DNA of 64,000 bases, taken from the NCBI RefSeq assembly GCF_001447785.1, contig NW_015169173.1, forward strand, positions 959,182 through 1,023,181, in the 5' to 3' direction. This document shows positions 1-61,400 of this stretch, piece by piece (position 1 is the first letter of the stretch; each line of letters opens with the position of its first letter). A program made the position numbers and the translations under genes. The notes below the pieces were generated by a model, which was given only the letters and a program-made list of their open reading frames with translations, made no database searches and was not told the DNA's origin. The stretch comes from Gekko japonicus (lineage: Eukaryota).

Positions 1-1335
1 GCCACTTGAGGTGGCACTCCTCCAACACCCCTGGAGCGCGGAATGCCTCCCCAGCTTCAGGGGAGAGCGTCCGCCATCGCTGAGCCGCAGACCGGAAGTC
101 GCGGTGCTTCCACACTTCCAATCCACTTTGCAACTGGATTTTACACTGTAAGACGGCAAAATCCATTTGCAAACTATTACTAGAGTGCATTGAAAGTGGA
201 TTATTAAGTGTGTGTGAAAGCGATAAACAGAACTAGGTCTAATCTAGTGGTGAGAGTATTGAGTCTGTGAGATCTTAATTCTGACACAAATTACCTTCTC
301 AGCCTCCACTGTTTGCTCTCACTCTGTAAAACAGGAAGTTTATTGTGGTAGTCAATGAGGTAAGAACCATAGACCACACTGTTAAAAATGCTTGAGCCAG
401 ATAAGAGGTCCAGAAAAGGAGACAACACAGAGTTTTAAATCATTGGCACTTAGCAGAAAATCGATCCCTTCATTCCCATCTGCTGGAACAGAACAGAATT
501 CCTTTTGAAAGGTACAGTGCTGCTACTTTGCAGTCTGGCAAAATACGGAGAGCTCCCCCAATCAGCAGGATCAGCAGGGGAAAACAAGGACACTAACAGT
601 GCAATCCTAAAAACACTTTTCTGAAAGTAAATTCCCTTGAGTAGACCTGCTTAGACTTACACTATCTGGGGCACAGTGCAACGAAGCATCATCTACTCTG
701 ACCTACATTCACTATAAAAGACAGAGCTGGAAAGCAAACCATTGCTTCTGAATGGTCATTCCAGCCCCTTATGATTCTACTGTTAAAACTGATAAAATCA
801 GTTTGCTTTCAGAGTAGTAATGGCAAACAAACAAAAACCCCTAGTTTGGAAAGGAAAGTGCAAGCAGCACTTACTGAATTTGTTCTGATGGACAATTATG
901 CTTTCACAAAAAGCATAGCCAAACTGGATCCATAACTTAAAATTTACAGACAATATTCTCCAAATATTAATAGTCCTTTATGGGTGTTTTAACAACCTTA
1001 AACAAAGCGCTCCCTAGAACATGACGAATACATTCCGTAACCTTGTTTTCTCTGATGTCATGGGGACACCCTGTACCATATGACAGGGCTTGACAAATCC
1101 TAGGTGCTGGGTCACCATAGCATCTAGAAACGCCATCATGGCAGCCAGTATTTTCAGCAATGACTTATTGCCGTGTCCCTCAGCAATTCTCAGTGGAAGT
1201 ACAAGCTTATTTATCATCTTGCATCAGCATGTTTTGTTGTATGATTCCAAAATTAACATGCACAAAGTACTTGTCATTGCTGGCTTATATGTAAATGTAA
1301 GTTTACACCATTCAATAGTGCTTCCTGAATTTTGT

Positions 1336-1683
1336 CAGAACAAGGAACTTCTTGACCTTCTCCATGGCATGGGCCATTAGAGCATAGGCTTCGCAAGGTG
1401 GTCCAAAGACTTCAATGAGGACACGCAGGTCCCTATTTAAGTAAGCATACTTTGGATCACATCCTTTGCGCAGTTCCTCTTCCTTTGCCTTGTCTCTCAT
1501 TGACCCTTTCCCAAGAACAGAGATCTTTGCTCCAGTTTCTTCCTGCAGCTGCTTAATGGTGTTGTCCTGGGGTCCCAGTACCTTCCCAACAAAGTCAAAC
1601 TTTGGATACTGCTTGACCAGTATCAGAACCCGTTCCTTCAGCTTCATGTTCTTGTGGGAAAACAAGTTCAAATAAGTCTCTTC
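1336..1683 (-). pseudogene. KHDRBS1: Processed (intronless) KHDRBS1/Sam68 fragment covering the STAR/KH domain, embedded in an LTR retroelement
   Basis: Translates [116 protein letters not shown], nearly identical to Sam68. It runs across the YPK|F and KAK|EEE exon junctions without introns. The GxxG loop is altered (GPQG>GPQD). Confidence 0.93.
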
Positions 1684-3740
1684 CCTGAACTCTCCTGGGT
1701 CTCCCAAGTGGCCTGTGAAGTGGTCACTACCAACCGTTTCCACTAGGTCACTCTCTGGGGAGTCCCAGGTGAGTTCTGCTTCCCTCTCCTGTGTTTCAAG
1801 AGAGTTGGATAGGAGAGCTCCCTCCCTGGATGTCTACTGGCCCTCCCGCTGGGGCTGATCGTCACCACACCCTTTTTTGGGTTTGGAGTCTAGTAGTTCC
1901 CCCTCCTCTGGGGTTACCAGGCCCTCCCTGTCACTTGCAGCTGCTTGTTCAGGCTGCCCCGGTGGTGTAGCCGACCCATTTCCCTCCTGGGCCCCCTGGG
2001 CCTCTAGAACCTGGGTAATCTGGCTTTCACCCCTGATGACCTGACTGCTAGTCACTGCTTTAACTGTAAATCGGCCTGCCAGAAGATCCCTGACTAGCAA
2101 CACTGGGTAAGGTTGGTCTTTTTTCAACCCCGTCTCTGTGAGGCACTCCTTCCCCCTCCATTCCAGGGGCACCCTTACCACTGGTACCATCTGAGATCCT
2201 CCGCAAGCTCCCACAATGTTGAAGACCCTGTTGGGCATAATATCAGCGTCAGATATAAGGTCAGACCTTATAAGTGAGATGGATGAACCCATATCAGCGT
2301 ACCCCAAAACCAGTTGGTCTTTTACCCTCACCGGTTCTACGAAACCAGCCCAGTCTTCCAGGGGCTTCATTGTGACACTGAGGCATTCATGCTGCACTAA
2401 TGCCACCGTGCCTTCTGTCACCTTTTGGACAGCTGGTGCCAGGGGGACAGGCTTGGGGAACTCTGCCTGTGCTTTAGGGCAAGTGGCTTTGAAATGCCCA
2501 GACTCCCCACAGGTATAGCAGGTCCAGCTAGGGGGTCTATCTCCCTCTGGTGTCTCTGAGGATTTCCTAACCCTAGATGGGGTAAGAGGCTCCCTCCTCT
2601 GGGGAGGGGGACTTGGTCTTCCACCCCTTCCATCTCCTACCGGGCTTTTCCACTCCATCCCTTCCCTGATGGCTACCAGCTTGTCTGCCAGGTCAGTGGC
2701 TTCAGTAAGGGTTTTGGACTCCTTATCCTTGATTAGACATTTTAACTCCTTAGGAATCTTGGAGTAAAACTGATCAAGGAGCATCAGTTGAGCCAAACCC
2801 TTCATATCAGTCACCTTGGCCTCAGTTAACCACCTCCCACACGTTTCTCCCAGTTTGGCCCCAAACTCCATGTAGGATTTACACTGCTGGGGATTTAAGG
2901 CTCTAAACTGCTTGCAAAAGTGGTTAGGCCCCAACTGGAATCGTTTGAACACCGCTGCCTTGAAGTCTTTGAAGGTGATCCCTCCTTCCTGGCTAGGCAT
3001 GCTGTGGCATACTGCTGCCAATTCCCCAGTCAGGATGCTGCAGAGATAGGCCATCAGGTCTGCTTCTGCCAGACCCCACTGGGTAGCAGCCTTCAGAGTT
3101 GGCTAGGCACACTGAAGGGTCTTCCCCCTCCTTGTAGGGAACAAATTCCTTCAGAGTGACCTTGGATCTTTTTACTCTGGTTCACCTGAAGGCATGCCAT
3201 CTCCATCTCGTGTCTGCGTTGTTCCTCCTGTGCCTGAAGATGCCACTTCTCCATCTCCTGCTCCAGTCTGCGTTGTTCCTCCTGGGACTGAACTGAACTT
3301 TTCCATCTCCATCTCAGTTTTCTTCATCTCCTTATCCCGCTCCAGTCTGCGGGCCTCTATCCGCATCCGCTGCAGTTCTAGTTGCAGCTGGAGATTTGTT
3401 TCTGGCTGTAGAGGGTGCACCACTGCAGCTGCTCCTGTACCCTGGTTATGGTCTATCAGGAGGGTTTGCAGATCAGCCACATTCATACCTGAAGACTCTC
3501 TGGAAACTGATTGGCTGTAACCCTCCTGGAGCTGTGGTTTGGTCATTTTCAGGATGTCCCGTATCTTTGCAGGCCTCATCCTATCCAACTAAGCTTCTCC
3601 TACTCCAGTCGACCCGAAAAAGAAAAACAAAGCCCTTTTGGATGGTTGTTCTCAGTGCGCTTGTGCCACCCGTCTGGTCCCAGGAGAGACCAGTGTGGGA
3701 GTGGAAAGCAGACAGCCTACAATCCCCATAATGCTTATAG
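1684..3740 (-). mobile_element. Degenerate Gypsy (Gmr1/SCAN-like) internal region: gag, CCHC zinc knuckle and aspartic protease
   Basis: ORFs 3172-3588 and 1834-3054 carry a capsid/SCAN-like segment (LMLLDQFYSKIPKELK), a knuckle (CYTCGESGHFKATC) and a protease motif (GYADMGSSISLI). There are frameshifts and stops around 3055-3174 and a TAG at 1834-1836. Confidence 0.9.
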
Positions 3741-3771
3741 AGGGTTATAGCCAATCAGTTTCCAGAGAGTC

Positions 3772-4228
3772 TGTGAGGAGAATATGACTTAAGCTGTTAA
3801 CTGTGAAAAGCAATGTTCTTTCGTCTCTCAGCTGCGGTCTGGTCTCACAGAGGGGACAGGCTGGTCTGGTGAGAGAAAAAGATCCCTCACTGGGGACAGA
3901 GTGAGAACAGGTAATGTAGCCTGGCAGGCTGTGGGCCTTGAAGGAGTAACCAGTTAAGCGAACTAGGTAGTCGCATTAGGTTTGTGTTTATTTTGCCTTT
4001 TAAACACTGTTAGATCTTTTAAAGCACCTTGTCTTGTTTTCCTTGCCCCGGTACTGTGCTAATAAACCATTTTGTTTCATTGTTACCTGCCTGGTCATCA
4101 CGCCTATGTTCTCGGCTTAAAAGGGGGGCATTTTTGGATGGGCTTGGGAGGGTACCCTGGGTCTTCTCAGGGGACCCGAAGTCCAGGGTGGTGGCGGCGG
4201 ATGGTGGCGACCCCCTGGGGTCATGACA
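3772..4228 (+). mobile_element. LTR (or 3' part of an LTR), oriented opposite to the adjacent gag-pro
   Basis: Starts TGTGAG, has AATAAA near 4060 on the + strand, and a GGTGGTGGCGGCGG U5-like tract. It ends ...GTCATGACA exactly at the right copy of the flanking duplication. Confidence 0.7.
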
Positions 4229-4679
4229 CTTGTCATTGCTGGCTTATATGTAAATGTCAGTTTACACCATTCAGTAGCGATGGATGAATTCATTGCTTCA
4301 CCAGTTACTTTCTATACTGCCTCCAATATTAATTTAAATAGAGATTTTTAGAGCAACACTGGAATTATGAGAAATTGGGGGAAAGTTCGATTAGAGGTTA
4401 CCTTTTTGTTATGGTGATGACAACCAACCACAGTTACAACTACACATACTTCAATACTTGTCATAGTTTAAAATTACAAGAACCTGTAAAGAGGTTTTGT
4501 GGTACCAATAATTAGAAAATACAGTCATTAAAATACAAAACTCTGAAGTTTGGCTCCTAAATTTCGGGGCCAGTTTCTTGATCTAAAGCAGATTTGTCAA
4601 GTCCTGCCTTATGAATTTGTTCCAAGGAGTTTCTGAAGAACTTTGAAGCTGAACACAACTTCCCTTGGGGAAACCAGGT

Positions 4680-5180
4680 GGCTTCTCGATCGGCCCGTGA
4701 CTCGAGATTTCCGGATTACTCAAACCTCCCAACGATCACAAACCCACGCGGTGCTACTGTTAGACTACTTTCGATAGCTGCCATCCCCACTAGCAGCCAA
4801 AAGGCTGATCTGTGGTGGGAGGAGTGGCTGTCACTCACCCGTTCACCACGAAGAACGGGTCCTCCAGAGACACCGCTGACCGATCGAGTCAGTCTCCCCG
4901 AGTCGCCTTCAGGAAGAGAGCGCCAGTCCGGTCAGCCGGGCACGGAGAGGACTAGCCACACGTATGGGGAAAGCGTCGCATGCTTTCCTCTCCCGCCCCA
5001 CACTGAAGCCTCCCAGGCGGCCACTTTTACTGTGGGCGCCTCTTCCCGAATCTGATCGGACTTTCCCCGCCCGTCTTCCAAAGTGGAACCGGCCTTTCCT
5101 AAAGGGAGGAGCCAGACGAGGGGAGGAAGGAAAGCACCCTGGATTTAGCTGGTTAGAGGGAATCCCCGGAATGTCTGCTG
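4680..5180 (-). promoter_or_regulatory. CpG-island promoter of STX10
   Basis: CpG-rich, with GC boxes (CCCGCCC near 4992 and 5066) and GGAA motifs directly upstream of STX10 exon 1. Confidence 0.65.
4839..4873 (-). pseudogene. STX10: STX10 (syntaxin-10) coding exon 1 with the start codon changed to GTG; the rest of the gene lies left of the window
   Basis: Minus strand reads GTG TCT CTG GAG GAC CCG TTC TTC GTG GTG AAC GG|gtgagt, i.e. (M>V)SLEDPFFVVNG, a 35-nt exon with a canonical donor. There is an in-frame TGA upstream at 4889-4891. It lies head-to-head with IER2 as in mammals. Confidence 0.82.
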
Positions 5181-9399: not shown

Positions 9400-9796
9400 T
9401 GTGGGGGTTTTCCCCCCTCGTTGGACGTCGTGCCCCTGGGCGGCCGAAGGTTTCGCTTTTTCCTCCTCCCCTCCCCCATCGCCTGACATTTCCGTCTACC
9501 CCGCCCCATCTCGGAGAGGGCGGCCAGAGGCGCGCGGCAAAGGGCCGGATGCGGCTCGCAGAGTGGGCGGAGGAGGCCCAGGCGCTGAGATCACCAGCAG
9601 TATAAAAGGGAGCGCGCTGGGCGCGGCCCCGCTCATTCGGGGCGGACGACGCTTGAAAGGGCTGTTCTAATGAGGATCGGCTGCTAACAACAGCGCGCGC
9701 AAAAAAGGAAGGGGGGGCGCCACTTTCGCCTTCGTGGAGAAAGGACAAAGGTTTCCTGTCCACTTCTGAGTAACCCCGAAGAGTCCGGAGGCCAAC
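9400..9796 (+). promoter_or_regulatory. IER2 proximal promoter and 5'UTR (CpG island, GC boxes, TATA box)
   Basis: TATAAAA at 9601-9607, GGGCGG boxes at about 9500-9570, and a strong Kozak context GCCAACATGG at the IER2 start. Confidence 0.75.
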
Positions 9797-10549
9797 ATGG
9801 AAGTGCAGAAGGAAGCGCAGCGCATCATGACCATGTCGGTGTGGAAAATGTACCACTCGCGTATGCAGCGCGGCGGCCTCCGGCTCCATCGCAGCTTGCA
9901 GCTATCCCTCGTCATGCGTAACGCCCGAGACCTCTATCTCTCCGCCAAGCTGGAGGAAGAGGACGAGATGGCAGCTGGGGTCGGCCCTGGAGAAGATTTT
10001 GCCGGGCGGCAGCCGCAGCTGGACTTACAGGCGCCAAGCCCTCCACATCTGGAGGGGGCCCGAGCACCGGAGAGACTTCCGCAGGCACCGCTGGAGGCGT
10101 CTCTTCTCAGCCCGCAGCCTTTGGAGACGCCGCCGCTCCCTTCGCCTTCGGCCAGCCCCGAGCCGGAGCCCATGGAGACTCAGGAGGAGCCCAGCAGCTC
10201 GCCCGCGCCTCCCCAGTCTCGGACTAGCTGGAGCCGGGGCGCCTCAGGGCCTCCGCCGGGCGCCACCAAGCCGAGCCGCAAGCGCCGCAGCAGCAGCCTG
10301 GGCAAAATAGGCGCCGCCGAAGCCGGTCTGGTGCCCAGCAAGAAGGCGAAGCTGGTGGAAGAGGAAGGCGAGCGGCAGCCGCAGCGCCAAGAAGGGCCTT
10401 TCCCGAGCTTAGCTCGAGTCTTGCAGGACCGCTTCTCGGGCTTGATCCTCCCGCCGCAGGCGGCTAAAGGCAGCGAGGAGCCCAAGGCCAGCTGCAGGCA
10501 AGGGGACGGCGTGCTGAGCATAATGGTGAGAGCTGTGGTGGCCTTCTAG
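9797..10549 (+). CDS. IER2: Immediate early response 2, intact single-exon ORF of 250 aa
   Basis: N-terminus MEVQKEAQRIMTMSVWKMYHSRMQRGGLRLHRSLQLSLVMRNARDLYL, basic NLS-like motifs RKRR and PSKKAK, and C-terminus VRAVVAF, all diagnostic of IER2. Confidence 0.97.
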   Translation: MEVQKEAQRIMTMSVWKMYHSRMQRGGLRLHRSLQLSLVMRNARDLYLSAKLEEEDEMAAGVGPGEDFAGRQPQLDLQAPSPPHLEGARAPERLPQAPLEASLLSPQPLETPPLPSPSASPEPEPMETQEEPSSSPAPPQSRTSWSRGASGPPPGATKPSRKRRSSSLGKIGAAEAGLVPSKKAKLVEEEGERQPQRQEGPFPSLARVLQDRFSGLILPPQAAKGSEEPKASCRQGDGVLSIMVRAVVAF

Positions 10550-12764: not shown

Positions 12765-14255
12765 GAATTTTATTATGTATATAGCCAAAGGCCATCACAG
12801 TACAGAATTAGGATAGTAAAAAGAAAATAATTCTAATCGTATATAGGTAAAACAGCAATTAAAAGGAATTTTCATACAAATAAATATGGACCAGTTATAA
12901 ACAGTAAATTTTTTAAATGATAAATCCAGTTAGTCATAAAAAGGTTAATTTTCTGAAGTTGCAGTCTTAGCCCTGATTTTTTGGGCAGCCAAGGCAAAAA
13001 GAGACACTTTATAACTGATGAGCGGATCAGTGTCAGATAATAGAAAGACCAGCTTGTCAATGTCAGAGGAAATTTTTTGCCCTATTAGCAGATTATCAAG
13101 ACATTTAGATCTAACTGCTGTATACATAGGACAAAATAGTGTGTAGTGAAGAATGTCCTCTGGAACTGAAGTACCACATATACAAGAACGTAAGGCCAGT
13201 GGTATTTGAGAGTATCTCCCCGTGAGTAGAGCTGTTGGCATAGTCTGAAAATGTAAGGAAGTGCCTATCTGAGATTTTGAGATGTAATATTCACTAAGTA
13301 AGGAGATCTATCATGATCTCTTCTGAATAACTTAAACCAAGGGGAGAATTTAGACCTAGAGATGGTAAACCTGTCCAATAAAGTGTCACATTTGTAGATC
13401 GTTTCTTAAGTTGGTACCAATATTGAGAGCCCCCAACAAATTGTCTGGAATAGAATAGTAGGCAAGTATGTTCTTATAACATGTAGACCAGGATGTGTCT
13501 CTACATGACATTAGTTGAAGGCATTGTTTGCTAAATATGTTGGTGAGGGCAGTATTACCTTTATTCCAGGATCTGAGTAAAGCAAGGTGGATGCGAGCCC
13601 TAACTTAGGGCATACCAAGTTCTGCCCTCATTAGGGCTGCAGGGGTCCCCTTGGGCAGGGCAAGAAGTCGTCTTAATGAATAAGTTTTGAATTGATTCCA
13701 GGCTGGAGATTAGTCCTTCAAGCCCCAGACCTCTACACCATAAAGAAGGTGGGGGATTGCCTTGTGAGTAAATAATTTTACTGCGGGGTCTACAAGGAAT
13801 CCACCTTTGGTGTGATAAAATCTCAGAATTGCTCCTTCTTTTTTTTTTTGTAGAAGCTTTAACAGTATCCAGATGTATTTTCCAATTTAAGGTCTCACTA
13901 AAGGTCACTCCCAAATATTTAAAAGAGCTGCATTGCTCAATAGCTATTCCATGAATACTCCAAGCAAACTTTCCGGGGTGTTTTCTAAAGACCATAACCT
14001 TGGTCTTGTTATAGATTATATTAAGAGCCTCCTCTTTACAGTATTCACCAAGTTGGTGTAGCAGCCTTTTTAATCCAATTTGAGTAAGAAATAAAAACCA
14101 TGTCATCAGCGTATAATAAAATTGAGATCTTCTGATGACCAAACAAGGAAGCAACAAACTTGGGTCCTGAGAGCTTGTGAACTATATAATTTATGTACAG
14201 GTTGAAAAGCAAGGGGGCAAGAATACATCCCTGCTTAACCCCCCCTACAGATTTC
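12765..14255 (-). mobile_element. 5'-truncated degenerate non-LTR retrotransposon (RT plus C-terminal CCHC; RTE-X-like, clade uncertain)
   Basis: RT motifs GVKQGCILAPLLFNLYIN, LLYADDMV and FKYLGVTF. C-terminal CICG...EDILHYTLFCPMY. The 3' end has AATAAA. Several frameshifts. Confidence 0.85.
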
Positions 14256-21796: not shown

Positions 21797-22118
21797 TAGG
21801 GTTGCCAAGTGGCACTTACCCTTCCGGCGGGGGACTCCAGGTCGGCTCCCGGCGCATGTGCGCGCCGCATGCACGTCACAGGGAAGTGACGTCATGACGC
21901 CGGGCACGCTGGGGGCGGGGCCACGACCATACAAGGGAAAACCAGTTTTCCCTTGTATGGCCGTGGCCCCGCCCCGAGCGTGCCCGGCATCATGACGTCA
22001 CTTCCCTGTGACGTGCATGCTGGGGCTGGGTTCCCCCCGGGGCCCGATTCCCCGGCGTCGGGGAACGAGCCTCTGGGGTGGGAGGTTTTCCACCCCCCGG
22101 GGGGATTTGGCAGCCCTA
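21797..22118. mobile_element. hAT-like MITE with a large internal palindrome
   Basis: Terminal inverted repeats TAGGGTTGCCAA...TTGGCAGCCCTA. Near-perfect hairpin at 21867-22020. Confidence 0.8.
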
Positions 22119-25895: not shown

Positions 25896-26453
25896 TGCTG
25901 TCTTTCTGCCAAATTTAGAGTCCCCAAGGCAGCAAACATTAAAAAGCATTTAAAATGCACATAAAAACACATGACCAAGGAGGAAGACTAAAACTGGACA
26001 GCCAACTTGAGCAGTCTGGGGAAAGCAGTGAAAGCTCTCTATGTATTTGCTGGGCTAAAAGCTAACCTGGTGTTTGAGCAAAACGGCCGTGAAGGGTCCT
26101 CCTCCTCTGAGGTTAGGAGGACATCTCCATGGGTTATTCCCATCGTTGCTGTCTTTCTGCCAAATTTAGAGTCCCCAAGGCAGCAAACATTAAAAAGCAT
26201 TTCAAATGTGCATAAAAACACATGAACAAGGAGGAAGACTAATAGCTGGTGAGAGTTGTTAGGGTGCAGTTTTTTACCTTTTTAAACTGGACAGCCAACT
26301 TGAGCAGTCTGGGGAAAGCAGTGAGAGCTCTCTATGTATTTGCTGGGCTAAGAGCTAACCTGGTGTTTGAGCAAAACAGCCATTGGCACTTACCGTGAAG
26401 GGTCCTTCTCCTCTGAGGTTAGGAGGACATCTCCATGGGTTATTCCCATCGTT
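25896..26453. repeat. Tandem duplication (25896-26146 and 26147-26453) that includes the end of the DIRS element
   Basis: TGCTGTCTTTCTGCCAAATTTAGAGTCCCCAAGG...GGACATCTCCATGGGTTATTCCCATCGTT occurs twice. The first copy has two internal deletions. Confidence 0.9.
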
Positions 26454-27359
26454 CCCTTTAGGGAGGCAGGAAATACTTTTTTCTCCTTCCTGTTGGCGCC
26501 TTGGGAATAGCCCTGCCCCTCAGTTCTGGGACTCCGTAAGCAGTGAGTATCAACTAAGGCTAACTCCCCTGCGCCAAGCAGGTAAACTTCAAACATTAAT
26601 TGTGGAACTATAAAAACAGTACAAGAACTCAGAAGAAGAAGAAGAGAACAGCACAGTGAAAAAGGAAAAGACGATGGTGAAAGTGGGAGGGCCGAGATGT
26701 CCTCTTAACCTCAGAGGAGAAGGACCCTTCACGGTAAGTGCCAATGGCCGTTCTTCCTCTGCAGTGGAGGACATCTCCCATGGGACCTCCAAAAGCAGTG
26801 TCCCCTATATGGGTGGGTCATCATCGTCAGCCGAAGGGAGAATGTGCTGACGCAATCGTGTTTAGCTTGTAGTGATGAATTAAGGTAACGTCCAAGTAGC
26901 GGCCTTGCAGACCTCCTCGACTGATGCTCTATTCGTGAATGCCGCATTGGTTGCCACACTTCTCAAGGAATGAGCCGTGATCCCTTTGGGAATTTCCATT
27001 CCCGACGCCTGTCGAGCACTCGGGAGGGACTTGCCTCACGACGTCTTCTGGCTCCACAAAGGAACAAGAAGGAAAAGGCAGAGTAAAGAGTAGGGGGAAA
27101 GAAGCAGATAGAGAGAACTCTAAGGGGGAAAAGGTAGAGTAAAAGTAGAACAAGTTAAAGGAGAAAAGTAGATGGACAAAAACGCAGAGCAGCATCATTA
27201 TCGTCCAGCAGGTGAAGAAGATAAAGAGAAAGATGACAGTACCAAGGAGAGTAGGGCTATTCCCAAGGCGCCAACAGGAAGGAGAAAAAAGTATTTCCTG
27301 CCTCCCTAAAGGAACAATGGGAACAACCCATGGAGATGTCCTCCATCTCAGAGGGAGAA
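26373..27359 (-). mobile_element. Non-autonomous DIRS1-like (tyrosine-recombinase class) retroelement
   Basis: Inverted terminal repeats at 26406-26514 and 27253-27359, a terminal extension at 26373-26405, and an internal complementary region at 26695-26784 that joins copies of both termini. No RT or YR ORF. Confidence 0.8.
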
Positions 27360-45736: not shown

Positions 45737-48772
<3,036 letters not shown>

Positions 48773-50044
48773 TTGCTGCTATTCACAGGTCTTACCAACT
48801 GCTTTAATCCAATCTTAGCTATACTTATCGCTCAATTATTTATGCATCTTGACTCCAACGAGCCCTTCATGGCAACTAACTCCCCCCCTCACCTATATGT
48901 AAGGCTTGAGGAAGTCTGTTTCAATGTATCTGAAGAAGTGTGCATGCACACAAAAAGCTTATACCCAGAATTAAACTTGTTGGTCTTAAAGGTGCCACTG
49001 GACTCAAACTTAGTTCTCACATCTGTTTGTTAACTTTTTAATTTGTATTTATTCGTATGCTAATTTGCTGCTATTCACAGGTCTTATCAGCTGCTTTAAT
49101 CCTATCTTAGCAATACTTATAGTTCAGTTACATATGCATCTTGACTCCAATTAGTCCTTCCTGGCAACTCACCTGCCAGAGCGTTACTCTCAGGAAATAA
49201 CTTCCTGGTGGTCCCCGGCCGAAGAGAAGTCCAGCTGTCCTTGGCCAGGGCTTTCTCAGCCCTGGCCCCCGCCTGGTGGAAGGCTCCGCCTGAAGACATC
49301 CATGCCCTGCCGGAGTTGTTACCATTCCACAGGGCATGTAAGGCAGAGATGTTCCGCTGGGCCTTCGGCTGAGGACAGTGGCAGGCGCCCTTTGGCACTC
49401 TCATATATTTTCCCATCCCTTGAAACTCCTCCCCCCAGGGAGGCTGGGGAGTCAGCACATGCAGGTGTATGGGAAGATATCCTAGCTATACAGTTCAGCT
49501 CTTTTCATCATACCCCATCTCTCTGGCCATACAAAAGAGAGGAAACAGAATCATTCCCAATCCCTCTACTCCAGCAGTGGCTATGGAAAGGCAAGATGGC
49601 CAGCCTCCAACCTTCAGCCACTCAGTTAGGTTAACGGTTTGAGTGCTTCACCCACCGCCTCCTTAAAAACCATTATCATAGAAATGGTTGTGCATCTACT
49701 AGCTGTGCACGAATAACTGCCAGGAGACAGTGGGATGAGTGGTTTTCTTTTTTTGGGGGGGGGAGAAATGACACAAATTGTTATTATGGTTATTTCCTTA
49801 GGGTTCTTCCTCTTTCTCTCTGCTGCCTGTGGATGTATTTCCCATTTTCTTTTTATGTGCTTTCACCAACATGCCATGACTAAAATCATGCTCAAACTTT
49901 ATTAAAAGGCCTGCAAGGTTTCAGTCTTGACTTGAGATGAATCACTAAAACCTGTTCCACAGCTCCAGGAAAGAGTCCCAATGGGCTGCCACCTATCAAG
50001 CAGACAGGACTGCTTCAGAATGACAGTGAACAAAAGGAATATAG

Positions 50045-55400: not shown

Positions 55401-58400
55401 TGCAACTGAGCCTGTGTTTACCAAGCTCCTAATTCAAGCTGGGCAGATTTTGTGTTCAATCTTAACTGACTGAAGGGAATGGGTGGATGGGGAGGGGGAA
55501 TGAAAGGGACAGAAAGTAAAAGGACAACACAAGGAGAAAACACACCGTGGAGTTCCTTTCCAAGATATCGAATGAAAGGCACTGAAACAAGGTTGTGACA
55601 GATCAGGGCACCAGTACCACTGACAACAGATGGCACTAACCTCGTGGGTCATATACTGTCACCTTCTTGTCATAGGTTCCTGTGACAAGGATGTCAGGCA
55701 GGTAAGAAAGGCACAACACAGCTGCTTTCCCTCTAGGATGAGAAGGAAAAATCAGGTGAAGGCACAGAATGCCCACTTTAAAGTCAACAAACCTCTGCTC
55801 AGCCACAGTTCTGCTTGTCGTGGATTACAAGGCTAGTGCCCTACGGGTGTCAGCTCGAGCAAAAGCCTTAATGTCTCTCAATATTGCCTGAGAACCCAGA
55901 ATACTGAGATGGGTCCCTTTATTCAGTGGAGCATGCAGCAAAATTCCAGGTTCTGCCGTTCTTATTTTAGATCCCCCAAGTACAACCCTCAGGAAAAGTT
56001 GCTAGGGCAACATTACCTGATTTCTCCGAACTGCTGCCCATCAGCAGCTATGTCCCAAAGCTTCACTGTACTGTCCCAGGAGCCTGAGCACACCCGGTTG
56101 TCTCTCGTAGCCAGCGACCAGACCCATCCCTAACAGCAAAAGAGTTAAGATCTACGTCAGCACTCTCTCCAACTCTTTAGAAGCAACACAATCTCATTCC
56201 AGTGGCACACAAAAAAAACACGTGGCCATTCCTTTCACCTACATCTTATTAACAGTAACTGCTCTAAAGCCGGGAATAGTTCCACATAATATGAACAGAC
56301 CTAGTGCTGACAGCCACCATGATGCAGTGGTTACGGTACTGCAGGGACCAGGGGCTCAAGGCCATGAAGCTCACAGGGTGCCCCCTGGGCCAGCCACACA
56401 TTCACAGCCTGACCTACCACACAGGGCTGTTATAAGGACAAAACAGAGGAGAGAAGAACCATGNNNNNNNNNNNNNNNNNNNNNNNNNNNNNNNNNNNNN
56501 NNNNNNNNNNNNNNNNNNNNNNNNNNNNNNNNNNNNNNNNNNNNNNNNNNNNNNNNNNNNNNNNNNNNNNNNNNNNNNNNNNNNNNNNNNNNNNNNNNNN
56601 NNNNNNNNNNNNNNNNNNNNNNNNNNNNNNNNNNNNNNNNNNNNNNNNNNNNNNNNNNNNNNNNNNNNNNNNNNNNNNNNNNNNNNNNNNNNNNNNNNNN
56701 NNNNNNNNNNNNNNNNNNNNNNNNNNNNNNNNNNNNNNNNNNNNNNNNNNNNNNNNNNNNNNNNNNNNNNNNNNNNNNNNNNNNNNNNNNNNNNNNNNNN
56801 NNNNNNNNNNNNNNNNNNNNNNNNNNNNNNNNNNNNNNNNNNNNNNNNNNNNNNNNNNNNNNNNNNNNNNNNNNNNNNNNNNNNNNNNNNNNNNNNNNNN
56901 NNNNNNNNNNNNNNNNNNNNNNNNNNNNNNNNNNNNNNNNNNNNNNNNNNNNNNNNNNNNNNNNNNNNNNNNNNNNNNNNNNNNNNNNNNNNNNNNNNNN
57001 NNNNNNNNNNNNNNNNNNNNNNNNNNNNNNNNNNNNNNNNNNNNNNNNNNNNNNNNNNNNNNNNNNNNNNNNNNNNNNNNNNNNNNNNNNNNNNNNNNNN
57101 NNCATGCAGTGATGCATACATCTGCACAGTTCATTTTGAATGCAGTATCTGGAATAACTGAGCAAAGAACTCAGGGTGTTAAGCAGCAAGGAAAGGAGTC
57201 ATGGGTGCAGTATAGGCAAGAGCAGAAAGAGCTCTGCAGGACACAGCTGAATCTTCGACAGTTGCTAACCGGAAAACTTTTATTTTCTTTTTATTTTATT
57301 TATTTATTTATTGTTCGATTTATATCCCGCCCTCCCCAGAACGGGCTCAGAGCGGCTAACAATTAGGGCACAAAGCCAAGATTAAAACAGGGCACGAAGC
57401 CATGATTAAAACACTAAAAACAATAAAACAATCCACTAATACATAAAGTGCAGGTGCTCTAGATGTCGCTACAGTCTTCTAGGTGTCACTTCAATCCTCA
57501 ATTCCAAGATGGGTTCTGGCAAAATAAGCCCAGAACAACAGCGTAAGTTCCGTAACAACACTGCCATCCAATCTTTGTCCCAGGGCCGTCTTGCACCTCG
57601 GTGGTACTCACACCATTTATGGTGGCGGTGCGATGGTGGTACAGTGGCAGCAGCGGCTCCTACTCAAAAGCCTGGCGGAAGAGCTCCATCTTGCACGCCA
57701 TGCGGAACTGCGCAAGGTCCCACAGGGCCCGGATCTCCTCCGGGAACTCATTCCACCAGGTAGGAGCCGCCACCAAAAAGGCCCTGGCCCTGGTCGCAGC
57801 GAATTTGATATCTCTGGGGTCTGGGGTCACCAAAAGATGTTGGGCCCCCAACCGTAGTGCCCTTGGGGGAACATATGGGGAAAGGTGGTCCCTTAGATTT
57901 GCCAGACCCTGGCCATGTAGGGCTTTAAAGGTAAGACCCAGCACTTTGAAGCAGATCCGTACGCTATTGGCAGCCAGTGCAGTGCTTTCAGCACAGGCCG
58001 GATATGGTCCCCCCTAGAGAGACCCATCAACAGCCTGGCTGCCGCATTCTGCACTAGCTGCAGCTTCCAGATTAGCGACAAAGACAGCCCCATGTAGAGA
58101 GTGTTACAGTAGTCCAACCTCGAGGTGACCGTCGTATGGATCACTGTGGCCAGGTCTTCGCGGTCAAGGAAGGGGACCAACTGCTGTGCCAGCCGAAGAT
58201 GGTAGAAGGCCGACTTGGCAGTGGCTGCTACCTAGGCCTCCATCGTTAAAGAGGAGTCCAGGAGCACACCCAAACTCCTAACCCCCAAGACTGGCACCAG
58301 AGGTGCCCCATCAACGGTCAGGACGGAGAGGGAGCCCCAACCCCGAACCAACCCAAGCCCAGGACCTCCGTCTTCGCCGGGTTTAGTTTCAGCCGACTCA

Positions 58401-61400
58401 GTCTGAGCAAACCAGCCACAGCTTGCAATGCCCGATGAAGGTCATCTGGGTCAGAGTTTGACCAGCCGCCCAGCATCAGATAGAGCTGGGTGTCATCCTC
58501 ATATTGATGACACCCAAGCCCATAACTCCAGGCAATCTGGGCAAGGGGGCGCATGTAGATGTTAAACAACATCGGGGACAGCACCGCCCCCTGAGGCACC
58601 CCACAATCAAGAGGGCGCCTCTGGGACCGCTGATCCCCTATCACCCCCCTTTGTCCCCGGCCTTGAAGAAAAGAGGCAAACCACTGTAGGGCAAGCCCCT
58701 GAATCCTGTCAGCGAGGTGGTGGGTCAGCAACTGGTGGTTCGCCATATCAAATGTGGCCAACAGATCTAACAACAACAGTGCTGCCACACCATCTCAATC
58801 CAGATGCATTCGGAAGTTGTCAGTCAGGGCAACCAACGCCGCCTCCGCCCCGTGACCTGGGCGAAAGCTGGAATGGAAAGGATCTAGGACTGAAGCATCC
58901 TCCAGAAAGCCCTGTAGCTGTATCGCCACCGCCCTCTCGATAAGTTTGCCCAAATAGGGCAAATTGGACACCGGCCGATAGTTGGCCAATTCAGCCAGGT
59001 CCAGAGATGGTTTTTTCAAGAGAGGGCGGACCATCACTTCCTTGAGTGCTCCGGGGAACCACCCCTCTGAAAGGGACGTTGATAATCTCCCGCAAAGCAA
59101 CTCGAAGCCCATCGTGGCCTGCCTTAATAAGCCAGGATGAGCACGGATCAAGGTTGCACATGGTTGGACGTACAGATACGAGCAATCTGTCAACTTTGTC
59201 CAGGCTGAGTAGGCCGAAACGCTCTAAACCCGAAGCCGAAGACGTGCAAGGGGCCTCGAGTTCGCTCACTGTTTCAATTGTGGTGGGGAGGTCATGGCGG
59301 AGCACCATGACTTTATCTACAAAATAGCTTGCAAATGCCTCACAGCCAATGTCCAATTCCCTAACGTTTTGCCTGCCCTGTGGCAGAGCTGTCAAAGACC
59401 GGATCGTTCTAAACAATTGGGCTGGGCATGAGCTCGCAGATGCAATCTCGGCTGCATAGAACTCCCTCTTTGCGGCCTTGACTGCCATCTCATAGGATCT
59501 CATAAGCGTCCTATAAGATGCTCTTGACGCCTCGTCACGAGCACGACACCACCGTCTCTCTAGCCATCTCAGTTCTTGCTTCAGATGCCGCAACTCCTGG
59601 GTATACCAGGGTGCTCGCCGAGTGCGAAGAGGGCACCTGGGAGCGATCTCGTCAATGGCTGTGGAGAGCCGACCATGCCAGTCCTCCACCAGCTCATCCA
59701 ACGAGCCGCCAGGGGGCCTCGGATCCCACAGGGCCATCTGGAACCACACAGGGTCCATTTGGCTCCATGGGCAAGCAAAAATCCACTCGCCGCCTACACA
59801 GGGTTGGGGTGGGACATTCAGGTGGGCCTTCAGTCCCTGGTGGTCCGACCATGGCACTGCATCCGCAGTGATCCGGTCCACCATCACCCCCACCACGAAG
59901 ATCATATCAAGCATGTGACCGGCCCGATGCGTGGGAGGCGATACAAGTTGAGAGAGTCCCAGCGCCGCCATGGACGACACTAGGTCCGTAGCCCAGCTGA
60001 AGGTCGCGTCCTCGGCATGGACGCTGAAATCCCCCAACACAATAAGCCTTGGGTGCTCCAACGCCCAGCCTGATATGGCCTCCAGCATGGACGGCAAGCT
60101 ATTGGCCGGTGCGGTAGGCGGTCGATACACTAGCCAAATCGCCAAACTCTCCTCAGCCTCCAGCATCAAGCTGACACATTCCACGCCCGCGATCTCCACG
60201 GACGGAGGCGCCCGGAAGGAGTAAGCCTCCCAAATGAAAATCGCCACTCCCCCCCCCCCCCCCTCACCCCCCACGATTGGTGGAGGACCGAGAAACCCGG
60301 TGGGGCAAGCTGGGTAAGAGCTACCGTCTCCCCATGCCGCACCCAGCTCTCGGTCACGCACGCCAGGTCTGCCTGTTGTTCCATCACAAAATCCCAAAGG
60401 ATTGTGGTCTTGTTGTTAATGGACCTGACGTTGGACAGCACCAATGACGGAGCGGGGTTTTCACTCCTGGCCCCACTGCCGGCCACCCTTGGGATGGGGC
60501 GTAGGCTGGAAGGGTGCTAAGCCATTCTGTTTCTCCACGTCCTTCCCTTACTTTTCAAACTGACTGCAGCAAGCTCAAAGTCTGGCAGTTTTTTAAAGGC
60601 AGTCACTGCACCCTGCTCACCATCAGTGTTCCCTCTAAGCTGAGTTAGTGTGAGCTAGCTCACAGTTTTTTAGCTTCCAGCTCACAAATTTTTGTCTTAG
60701 CTCAGGAAGGATGGCTCCAGCGCAAAGTAATTGATGCAGTAGCCAAACCGCTTGCTCACAGCTTTAATGCCGGTAGCTCACAAAGTAGAATTTTTGTTCA
60801 CAAGATCCCACAGCTTAGAGGGAACATTGCTCACCATGTAGAACAACACATCTTAAAGGTGAGAGCATCAGCCCTCTATTCCAAAAGAAATTGAATGGTC
60901 CTATGGCAAGTCCGATCTCGTCAGATCCCAGAAGCTAAGCAGGGCTGACCCTGGGAAGTACTTGGATGGAAGACCTCCAAGGAATACCAGGGCCAGGACA
61001 CAGAGGCAGGCAATAGCAGGCAAAAGCCACCTCTCGGAAACGTCCAAGCCCGACTAGGGGTCGCCGGAAGTCAACCATGACTTCCAGGCACATAAAAAAA
61101 ATACAAAAAGAAGGAAGGAAGGAAGGAAGGAAGGAAGGAAGGAAGGAAGGAAGGAAGGAAGGAAGGAAGGAAGGAAACACAGTGGGTTAGAACAAGAATC
61201 TCTACTGTCAGTCTGACTGGTTTAATTCTGGAAAAAAGGCCCCTTCCATGCAAATTACCACAGAGATATTTTCACAAACCCAAAGGCAGCAGCATTCAGG
61301 CTCTTGACTGGCCACATACTCATGGAAGGACATATGTCAAAAAGTAATATTGCACTACTACAGCAGCACAGAAATTTAGCAGCTTTTACCTGAAGGAGGA

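Follow-up and report, generated by a model that had tools for sequence, protein, structure and literature searches.

The window analysed here, a 64,000-nucleotide stretch of the gecko Gekko japonicus (contig NW_015169173.1; positions are counted within this stretch), carries on its minus strand a copy of a Gmr1-like Ty3/Gypsy retrotransposon in which a piece of the host gene KHDRBS1 (Sam68) follows Gag and protease. The minus-strand open reading frames (ORFs) at 1834-3102 and 1312-1833 share one frame, which from 3102 to 1312 is closed by a single internal stop, the TAG at 1836-1834, as an earlier note on this DNA had described for its Gag-protease and KH parts. A leader (3580..3659), placed from the sequence, lies ahead of a Gmr1-type gag (2440..3579) that opens with an ATG at 3579 and changes frame near 3295, 3165 and 3093. 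Gag includes a SCAN capsid (about 2922-2668, Pfam PF02023) and a CCHC knuckle (about 2523-2473, Pfam PF00098), and it is followed by an aspartic protease (2075..2340) whose active-site motif departs from that of relatives at one residue (2292-2290). The spacer between protease and integrase (1684..2074), which includes the TAG, stops at the motif that precedes the zinc-binding domain of the integrase in relatives. From Gag through protease, identity reaches 54% over 361 residues with P0001, a polyprotein of Sphaerodactylus townsendi. SCAN capsid, CCHC knuckle, protease and a single Gag-Pol frame are shared with P0001 and P0002 of the same species at 51-54% identity, and both place the integrase before reverse transcriptase (RT) and RNase H. 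The order protease-integrase-RT-RNase H is given as Gmr1-like in the available text of bioRxiv 2025.03.03.638093; it is seen in P0001 and P0002 only, with integrase, RT and RNase H domains absent from the window element. Because the spacer is open in both relatives, the TAG appears to be a lesion rather than a programmed Gag stop. A 33-nt patch within gag (3493..3525, minus strand) is an inverted copy (32/33) of positions 3740-3772 in the long terminal repeat (LTR); it is in frame, has roughly the length of the stretch it replaces, and may stem from RT switching on the RNA of the element or from a local template switch in DNA.

From 1683 on, the frame reads as KHDRBS1 (PDB match, E=1.7e-62), in line with the identification of the KH fragment in the earlier note. 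The top matches are gecko proteins, and the codon at 1677 encodes Thr, the squamate-type state. Exon boundaries were deduced from gene models. After KKFLVP, 9 of 198 proteins continue into an unrelated stretch beginning with Val, consistent with intron read-through in phase 0. In about 12 of 112 proteins, the sequence upstream of IEKIQK is unrelated, with Glu or Gln retained (phase 1), and further breaks occur before FNFVGK and after GSMRDKxK. The resulting exon lengths of 125, 117 and 147 nt, which we take to belong to exons 2-4, sum to 389 nt; no paper on the exon structure of KHDRBS1 was found in the literature searched. Read against these boundaries on the minus strand, the insert would consist of nucleotides 42-125 of exon 2 (1600..1683), the 117 nt of exon 3 (1483..1599, carrying the N171- and G181-equivalent changes), 145 of the 147 nt of exon 4 (1338..1482) and, after exon 4, nucleotides 5-21 of exon 2 (1321..1337). 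Two boundaries are crossed without introns, which agrees with the previous description of the KH part as intronless. In a tblastn search with the gecko KHDRBS1 protein P0003, significant cover was restricted to residues 29-149 at 1701-1339, with no exon 1 sequence and none from exon 5 onwards in the insert. Co-linear KHDRBS1 homology ends at KKFLV. Beyond the KH end no run of A exceeds 4, and no poly(A) was found. Target-site duplications (TSDs) around the KH piece were not found either. An own poly(A) and TSD had been named beforehand as signs of an independent insertion of the KH fragment.

After exon 4, the insert returns to exon 2. Across 910 offsets in gecko KHDRBS1, positions 1337-1321 fit best at a single one, nucleotides 5-21 of exon 2, with 1 mismatch against 3 for the next best. 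The start of exon 5, the co-linear continuation, differs at 7-14 of the 17 positions. None of 300 random 17-mers fitted as well as 1337-1321, and 2 of 300 random 13-mers matched perfectly. The non-co-linear junction is found whole in two further proteins, P0123 and P0136, and the window version is 6 nt shorter than that of P0123. After the last exon-4 codon, P0123 continues with KLTKFR and P0136 with KSTKFR, which correspond to the EIDKIQK exon entered at its first base in a shifted phase. In gecko KHDRBS1, KLTKFR has one possible coding site among 903 position-phases (P0003) and one among 1233 (P0004), each time at the opening base of the exon; the Sphaerodactylus gene, which has EIEK, offers 0 of 1197. 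Across all fetched proteins KLTKFR is encodable at 12 of 321,303 position-phases, of which 11 are the same host peptide and 1 is unrelated. The pieces of the insert thus follow the order exon 2 3' part, exon 3, exon 4, exon 2 5' part, all of which would lie inside a putative exon 2-4 circle. The insert covers 369 of its 389 nt. The supplement of PMC4823868 lists a human KHDRBS1 circle at chr1:32495898-32498935 with a spliced length of 389, and the same coordinates are catalogued in the available part of PMC7326039; another KHDRBS1 circle from the same acceptor appears in the available text of PMC12465176. The agreement between deduced and catalogued length supports a circular template, documented for KHDRBS1 in human.

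Other sources for the bases after KH were considered and rejected. A deleted exon 5 is disfavoured by at least 7 of 17 mismatches against 1 for exon 2, and DNA templated by the flank by the exon-2 match of 1337-1321 together with the P0123 and P0136 tails. A likeness to LNGV in a 51-nt repeat next to the insert is attributed to chance, as 293 of 3000 random 51-mers match the host protein over 4 residues. DGDY read as exon 5 in another frame is encodable once in the host protein, its fifth residue fails, and it was not counted.

Further chimeric copies had been predicted, and P0123 and P0136 bear this out. A phmmer search of 1.84 billion representatives with the whole frame brought up both (among the best 150 of 3700 matches), and a profile search covered proteins of 85-508 aa (best 120 of 860, with 8000 candidates scored). 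P0123 and P0136 were the sole chimeras among these best 120, and none of the other 285 fetched proteins bore the diagnostic marks; a search for long chimeric proteins (304-2000 aa) gave none within the best 120 of 663. P0123, a gene model from Gekko kuhli, lies on a contig of 241 Mb, spans the same spacer-to-KH switch and is 86% identical to the window copy over 148 residues; P0136, a model from NCBI, lies on one of 41 Mb. Both have element sequence on either side of the KH insert. Residues 1-40 of P0136 resemble the start of a different Gmr1-type Gag, which could mean either that a second family acquired the KH module or that the gene model fuses two neighbours. The three copies group together at 99/97 support (one row left out) and have in common the changes 171D, 186Q, 216C and 250K (human numbering, anchored at Y145, R204 and Y241). 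The window copy has 4 private changes against 13 in P0123 (p=0.049), which weakly suggests separate insertions of different age rather than orthologues.

At protein level, the insert extends from where the integrase region begins to the final residues of Pol. The 5' switch falls on GAAGAG (1678..1683, minus strand), and the same switch occurs in P0123. The hexamer pointed out in the earlier note is indeed present, and its Glu-Glu fits both parents; that they shared it as DNA is deduced from protein only. At the 3' switch, the last 6 nt of 1321..1337 encode Arg-Lys and fit the Pol C-terminus too, so that Glu-Glu and Arg-Lys are each compatible with both parents, as peptides only. The window tail diverges from P0123 and P0136 after Arg-Lys. 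In P0123, the exon-2 reading accounts for 7 residues (21 nt); what remains, taken together with the shared Arg-Lys, is RKDGD. A scan of 109,365 residues gave a single RKD.D, at residue 1268 in the 1273-residue Gmr1 Pol P0001, where 604 residues separate the two switch motifs. The internal ORF part was hence replaced rather than interrupted, with about 604 Pol codons (integrase, RT and RNase H) giving way to 369 nt of the circle. The earlier proposal that a spliced host RNA was captured by template switching in place of integrase and RT is supported by the lack of poly(A) and TSD and the loss of about 604 codons; the linear mRNA that it assumed as template is contradicted by the exon 2 start that follows exon 4 at 1337-1321 and in both other copies.

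The ends of the window copy are damaged. The interval 1269..4273 had been described as a Gypsy LTR element, and a complete one it is not: the terminal repeats are a 51-nt host-like duplication, and there is one LTR only. The upstream copy of the duplication (4229..4279) starts with CTTG on the plus strand and abuts the LTR end; the downstream copy (1270..1320) occupies the place expected for the Pol end, the polypurine tract (PPT) and the 3' LTR. They form a direct repeat with 3 mismatches (window self-comparison, E=6e-16). Terminal repeats of 51-63 nt were rejected as LTRs, being AT-rich, without TG...CA ends and continuous with the flank. The single LTR-like segment has TG...CA ends and spans 565 nt (3664..4228) or 567 nt (3662..4228). 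A second LTR was not found in the window, where self-comparison returned only the 51-nt direct and the 33-nt inverted repeats for this region. Primer-binding sites (PBSs) have a TGG-type form; none was seen in 3580..3659, and neither a PBS nor a PPT was found. A short TSD around the whole element was also not found, with the 51-nt duplication in its place.

The orientation of the LTR allows two readings. Signals on the plus strand, opposite to gag, include CCAAT at 3751 and AATAAA at 4061 with a T/G-rich tail; this AATAAA sits 70% of the way along the LTR and its tail has 63% G+T, whereas the minus-strand AATAAA sits at 42% and is followed by 37% G+T. By the motif order taken from the available text of PMC3601003, this favours a solo LTR pointing away from gag. 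Its 4-bp TSD would be the CTTG at 3660..3663 (plus strand), which recurs at 4229-4232 after the LTR; the pair is either such a TSD or due to chance. The location of the LTR, about 80 nt ahead of the gag ATG and directly bordering the duplication, speaks for the 5' LTR of the element itself. The P0123 tail was uninformative as to orientation, with a mismatch rate of 0.31 against 0.30-0.32 and 48% of 2000 random starts doing equally well. At the putative join to host DNA (1321-1331), 7 of 11 bases are in register, an imperfect homology. Since the 3 mismatches in 51 nt of the repeats are close to the private change of the window copy, the loss of the 3' end is, as a rough estimate, probably about as old as the insertion. 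The earlier description listed the sequence features correctly and missed the gag breaks, the non-LTR nature of the terminal repeats, the non-co-linear KH end and the KH substitutions. With three gag frameshifts, a stop, a single LTR, neither PBS nor PPT and a 51-nt duplication at its 3' end, the window copy is dead. Compared with intact Gmr1-like elements, its integrase, RT and RNase H are replaced, its 3' LTR, PPT and PBS are missing and its gag is broken.

We suggest that the locus is a dead chimeric Gmr1-like Ty3/Gypsy copy in which reverse-transcribed circular RNA (circRNA) from KHDRBS1 exons 2-4, a circle of 389 nt, took the place of integrase, RT and RNase H, a reading to which we assign a probability of about 0.7. 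A KHDRBS1 circle would have been co-packaged in a particle. During minus-strand synthesis, RT would have left the element RNA at the pol end, landed on the circle near nucleotide 21 of exon 2, copied backwards over the back-splice junction for 369 of the 389 nt and rejoined the element RNA at GAAGAG. The stop about 20 nt before a full turn could, speculatively, mark a switch near the end of a circle opened by RNase H. The stepwise shared changes of the three copies suggest that the chimera was then re-copied in trans as a non-autonomous element, with the KH part decaying as a passenger. At insertion or shortly afterwards, a join to host DNA may have cost the window copy its 3' end and left the 51-nt duplication; decay would have followed. 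The join was presumably of repair type, made at a one-ended integration or during recombination with an empty allele. One-ended integration serves here as an analogy, and no paper on its aberrant form was found in the literature searched.

Several observations weigh against this reading. The one LTR has signals pointing away from gag and comes without PBS or PPT. Only two further copies were found in the protein searches, and P0123 may be the orthologue of the window locus. The exact splice joint rests on P0123 and P0136, which are automated models labelled UNVERIFIED_CONTAM. Both microhomologies and the exon boundaries derive from proteins, not from the DNA of gecko KHDRBS1 or of the parent element. 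The Pol-end match comprises 4 of 5 residues, set against a family only 54% identical. The human circle is rare, with 12 reads over 26 samples in the supplement of PMC4823868.

Among the alternatives, a single old insertion that was inherited or segmentally duplicated, instead of a retrotransposing family, fares best and is still unlikely. There are three sequences in all, and P0123 and P0136 are known as gene models without flanking DNA. Against this stand their different contigs, the different 3' and 5' neighbours, the stepwise shared changes and the unequal private changes. We consider the chimera to have probably been amplified as a non-autonomous family, judging from these sequence comparisons. 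Less probable still is that the same circle was inserted by the RT of a long interspersed nuclear element (LINE), or in the course of break repair, into a Gypsy copy already present, with deletion of its pol. The scars in the window look repair-like (the 51-nt duplication, the imperfect-homology join and the inverted 33-nt patch), but they are private to the window copy. In addition, the insert lacks poly(A) and TSD, and P0123 and P0136 show an internal ORF replaced between element sequence, a signature described in the available text of PMC5131818. A linear RNA with repeated exons, made by trans-splicing or from a genomic tandem duplication of exons 2-4, would yield an identical non-co-linear junction, and the available text of PMC4897178 mentions other routes to such junctions. 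We regard it as improbable, given that the insert is confined to three exons and to just under one turn and that a circle of matching size is catalogued in human. We give next to no credence to a linear KHDRBS1 mRNA followed by a deleted exon 5 or repair filler: one frame after KH loosely resembles exon 5 (D..I.QE..LNGV) and two 6-mers of the filler turn up again in flanking DNA at 4285-4300, but the poor fit of exon 5, the whole back-splice junction in P0123 and P0136 and the chance frequency of 4-residue matches all speak against it.

Equally hard to credit is a domesticated KH fusion that serves in RNA binding or packaging. The KH part is open in all three copies and both switches are in frame, but in-frame capture is common (14 of 17 cases in the available text of PMC5131818), and, without selection, 116 codons that take up 13-15 changes would stay open in 42-53% of cases. 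Frameshifts and a stop lie upstream of KH. Where all 67 amniote orthologues used (of 69) agree, the window KH departs from them at 12 codons and, in addition, at the junction codon. The N171 equivalent is changed in all three copies; N171 of Sam68 hydrogen-bonds RNA, and N171D/F172L is a described mutant in the available text of PMC4735526. As in the Sam68 STAR domain of that paper, the equivalents of KH residues 143-256 are present, and Y145 and Y241 are kept in the window copy and P0123. In contrast to it, the captured piece has no QUA1, no D258 equivalent and no C-terminal region, and the second glycine of GxxG is changed in the window copy. QUA1, intact RNA contacts and purifying selection, which a functional STAR RNA-binding domain would show, are thus wanting. 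The captured KH is a decayed rather than a working RNA-binding domain, and the notion of a family carrying a host RNA-binding domain is in that sense not supported. The window locus would make no fusion protein today and is most likely inert. As a long shot, a gecko Gmr1 family may have been founded by the circRNA capture with a frame open from Gag through KH and the back-splice shift to the Pol stop; the KH released by its expressed members, without RNA binding but with the Y145/Y241 dimer surface, could have acted as a poison or decoy for Sam68 or T-STAR in the germ line.

The insert shows the sequence traits by which PMC4897178, in its available text, recognises circRNA-derived pseudogenes. 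Like the mouse circRFWD2 pseudogenes described there, it has a genomic back-splice junction, circle exons only, no poly(A) and several copies. The mouse copies neighbour the LTR element MMERVK10C-int, which resembles the LTR-element setting here. In contrast to that endogenous retrovirus neighbourhood in mouse, the present host is a squamate and the element a Gmr1-like Ty3/Gypsy; both switches map within the element ORF, and the insert is in frame with Gag-protease. The authors of PMC4897178 call the mechanism mysterious and leave it open. Entry and exit at identifiable Pol sites, enclosing just under one turn, make copy-choice capture by an LTR-element RT a testable explanation. LTR-mediated retrocopies in the available text of PMC5131818 likewise replace an internal ORF part with partial spliced host RNA and lack L1 hallmarks. 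They share short sequence at the switches (here at peptide level) and non-autonomous re-copying (here deduced), and older ones lose one side, as at the window locus. The present case differs in its circular template, its 51-nt duplication and its one LTR in place of the two by which those retrocopies are recognised. The words 'circular' and 'reptile' have 0 occurrences in the main text of PMC5131818. No reptile circRNA-derived pseudogene was found in the literature, searched at title and abstract level with few subscription journals covered.

Elsewhere in the window, a short exon-like SLEDPFFVV (4839-4874, minus strand) stands before a GT donor and is preceded by GTG, not ATG. It may resemble the N-terminus of syntaxin-6/10, although PDB and Pfam gave no match; if the likeness is right, the element sits in sense in the first intron of that gene. 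A single-exon IER-family gene (9770-10549, plus strand, Pfam PF05760) lies in a GC-rich island. Minus-strand retroelement traces comprise a LINE remnant with endonuclease-like and RT pieces (58321-60415) and a weak remnant of an RT C-terminus (13600-14181, E=0.059). Near-identical direct and inverted repeats of 41-98 nt (95-100%) cluster at 25896-27312, pointing to local rearrangement. At 46688-49172, tandem-like duplications include one 300-nt pair that is 99% identical, either young or an assembly effect. There is a hairpin at 21867-22020 with 76-nt arms (96% complementary) and a 2-nt loop. An assembly gap lies inside 56111-57366, and the window contains 708 N in total.

The locus would be a fossil of a KHDRBS1 exon 2-4 circle of human size in the germ line of a lizard. 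A circle of the same size in lizard and human suggests that back-splicing of KHDRBS1 exons 2-4 is probably old among amniotes. Such genomic copies can imitate back-splice reads, and they get annotated as KHDRBS1-like genes.

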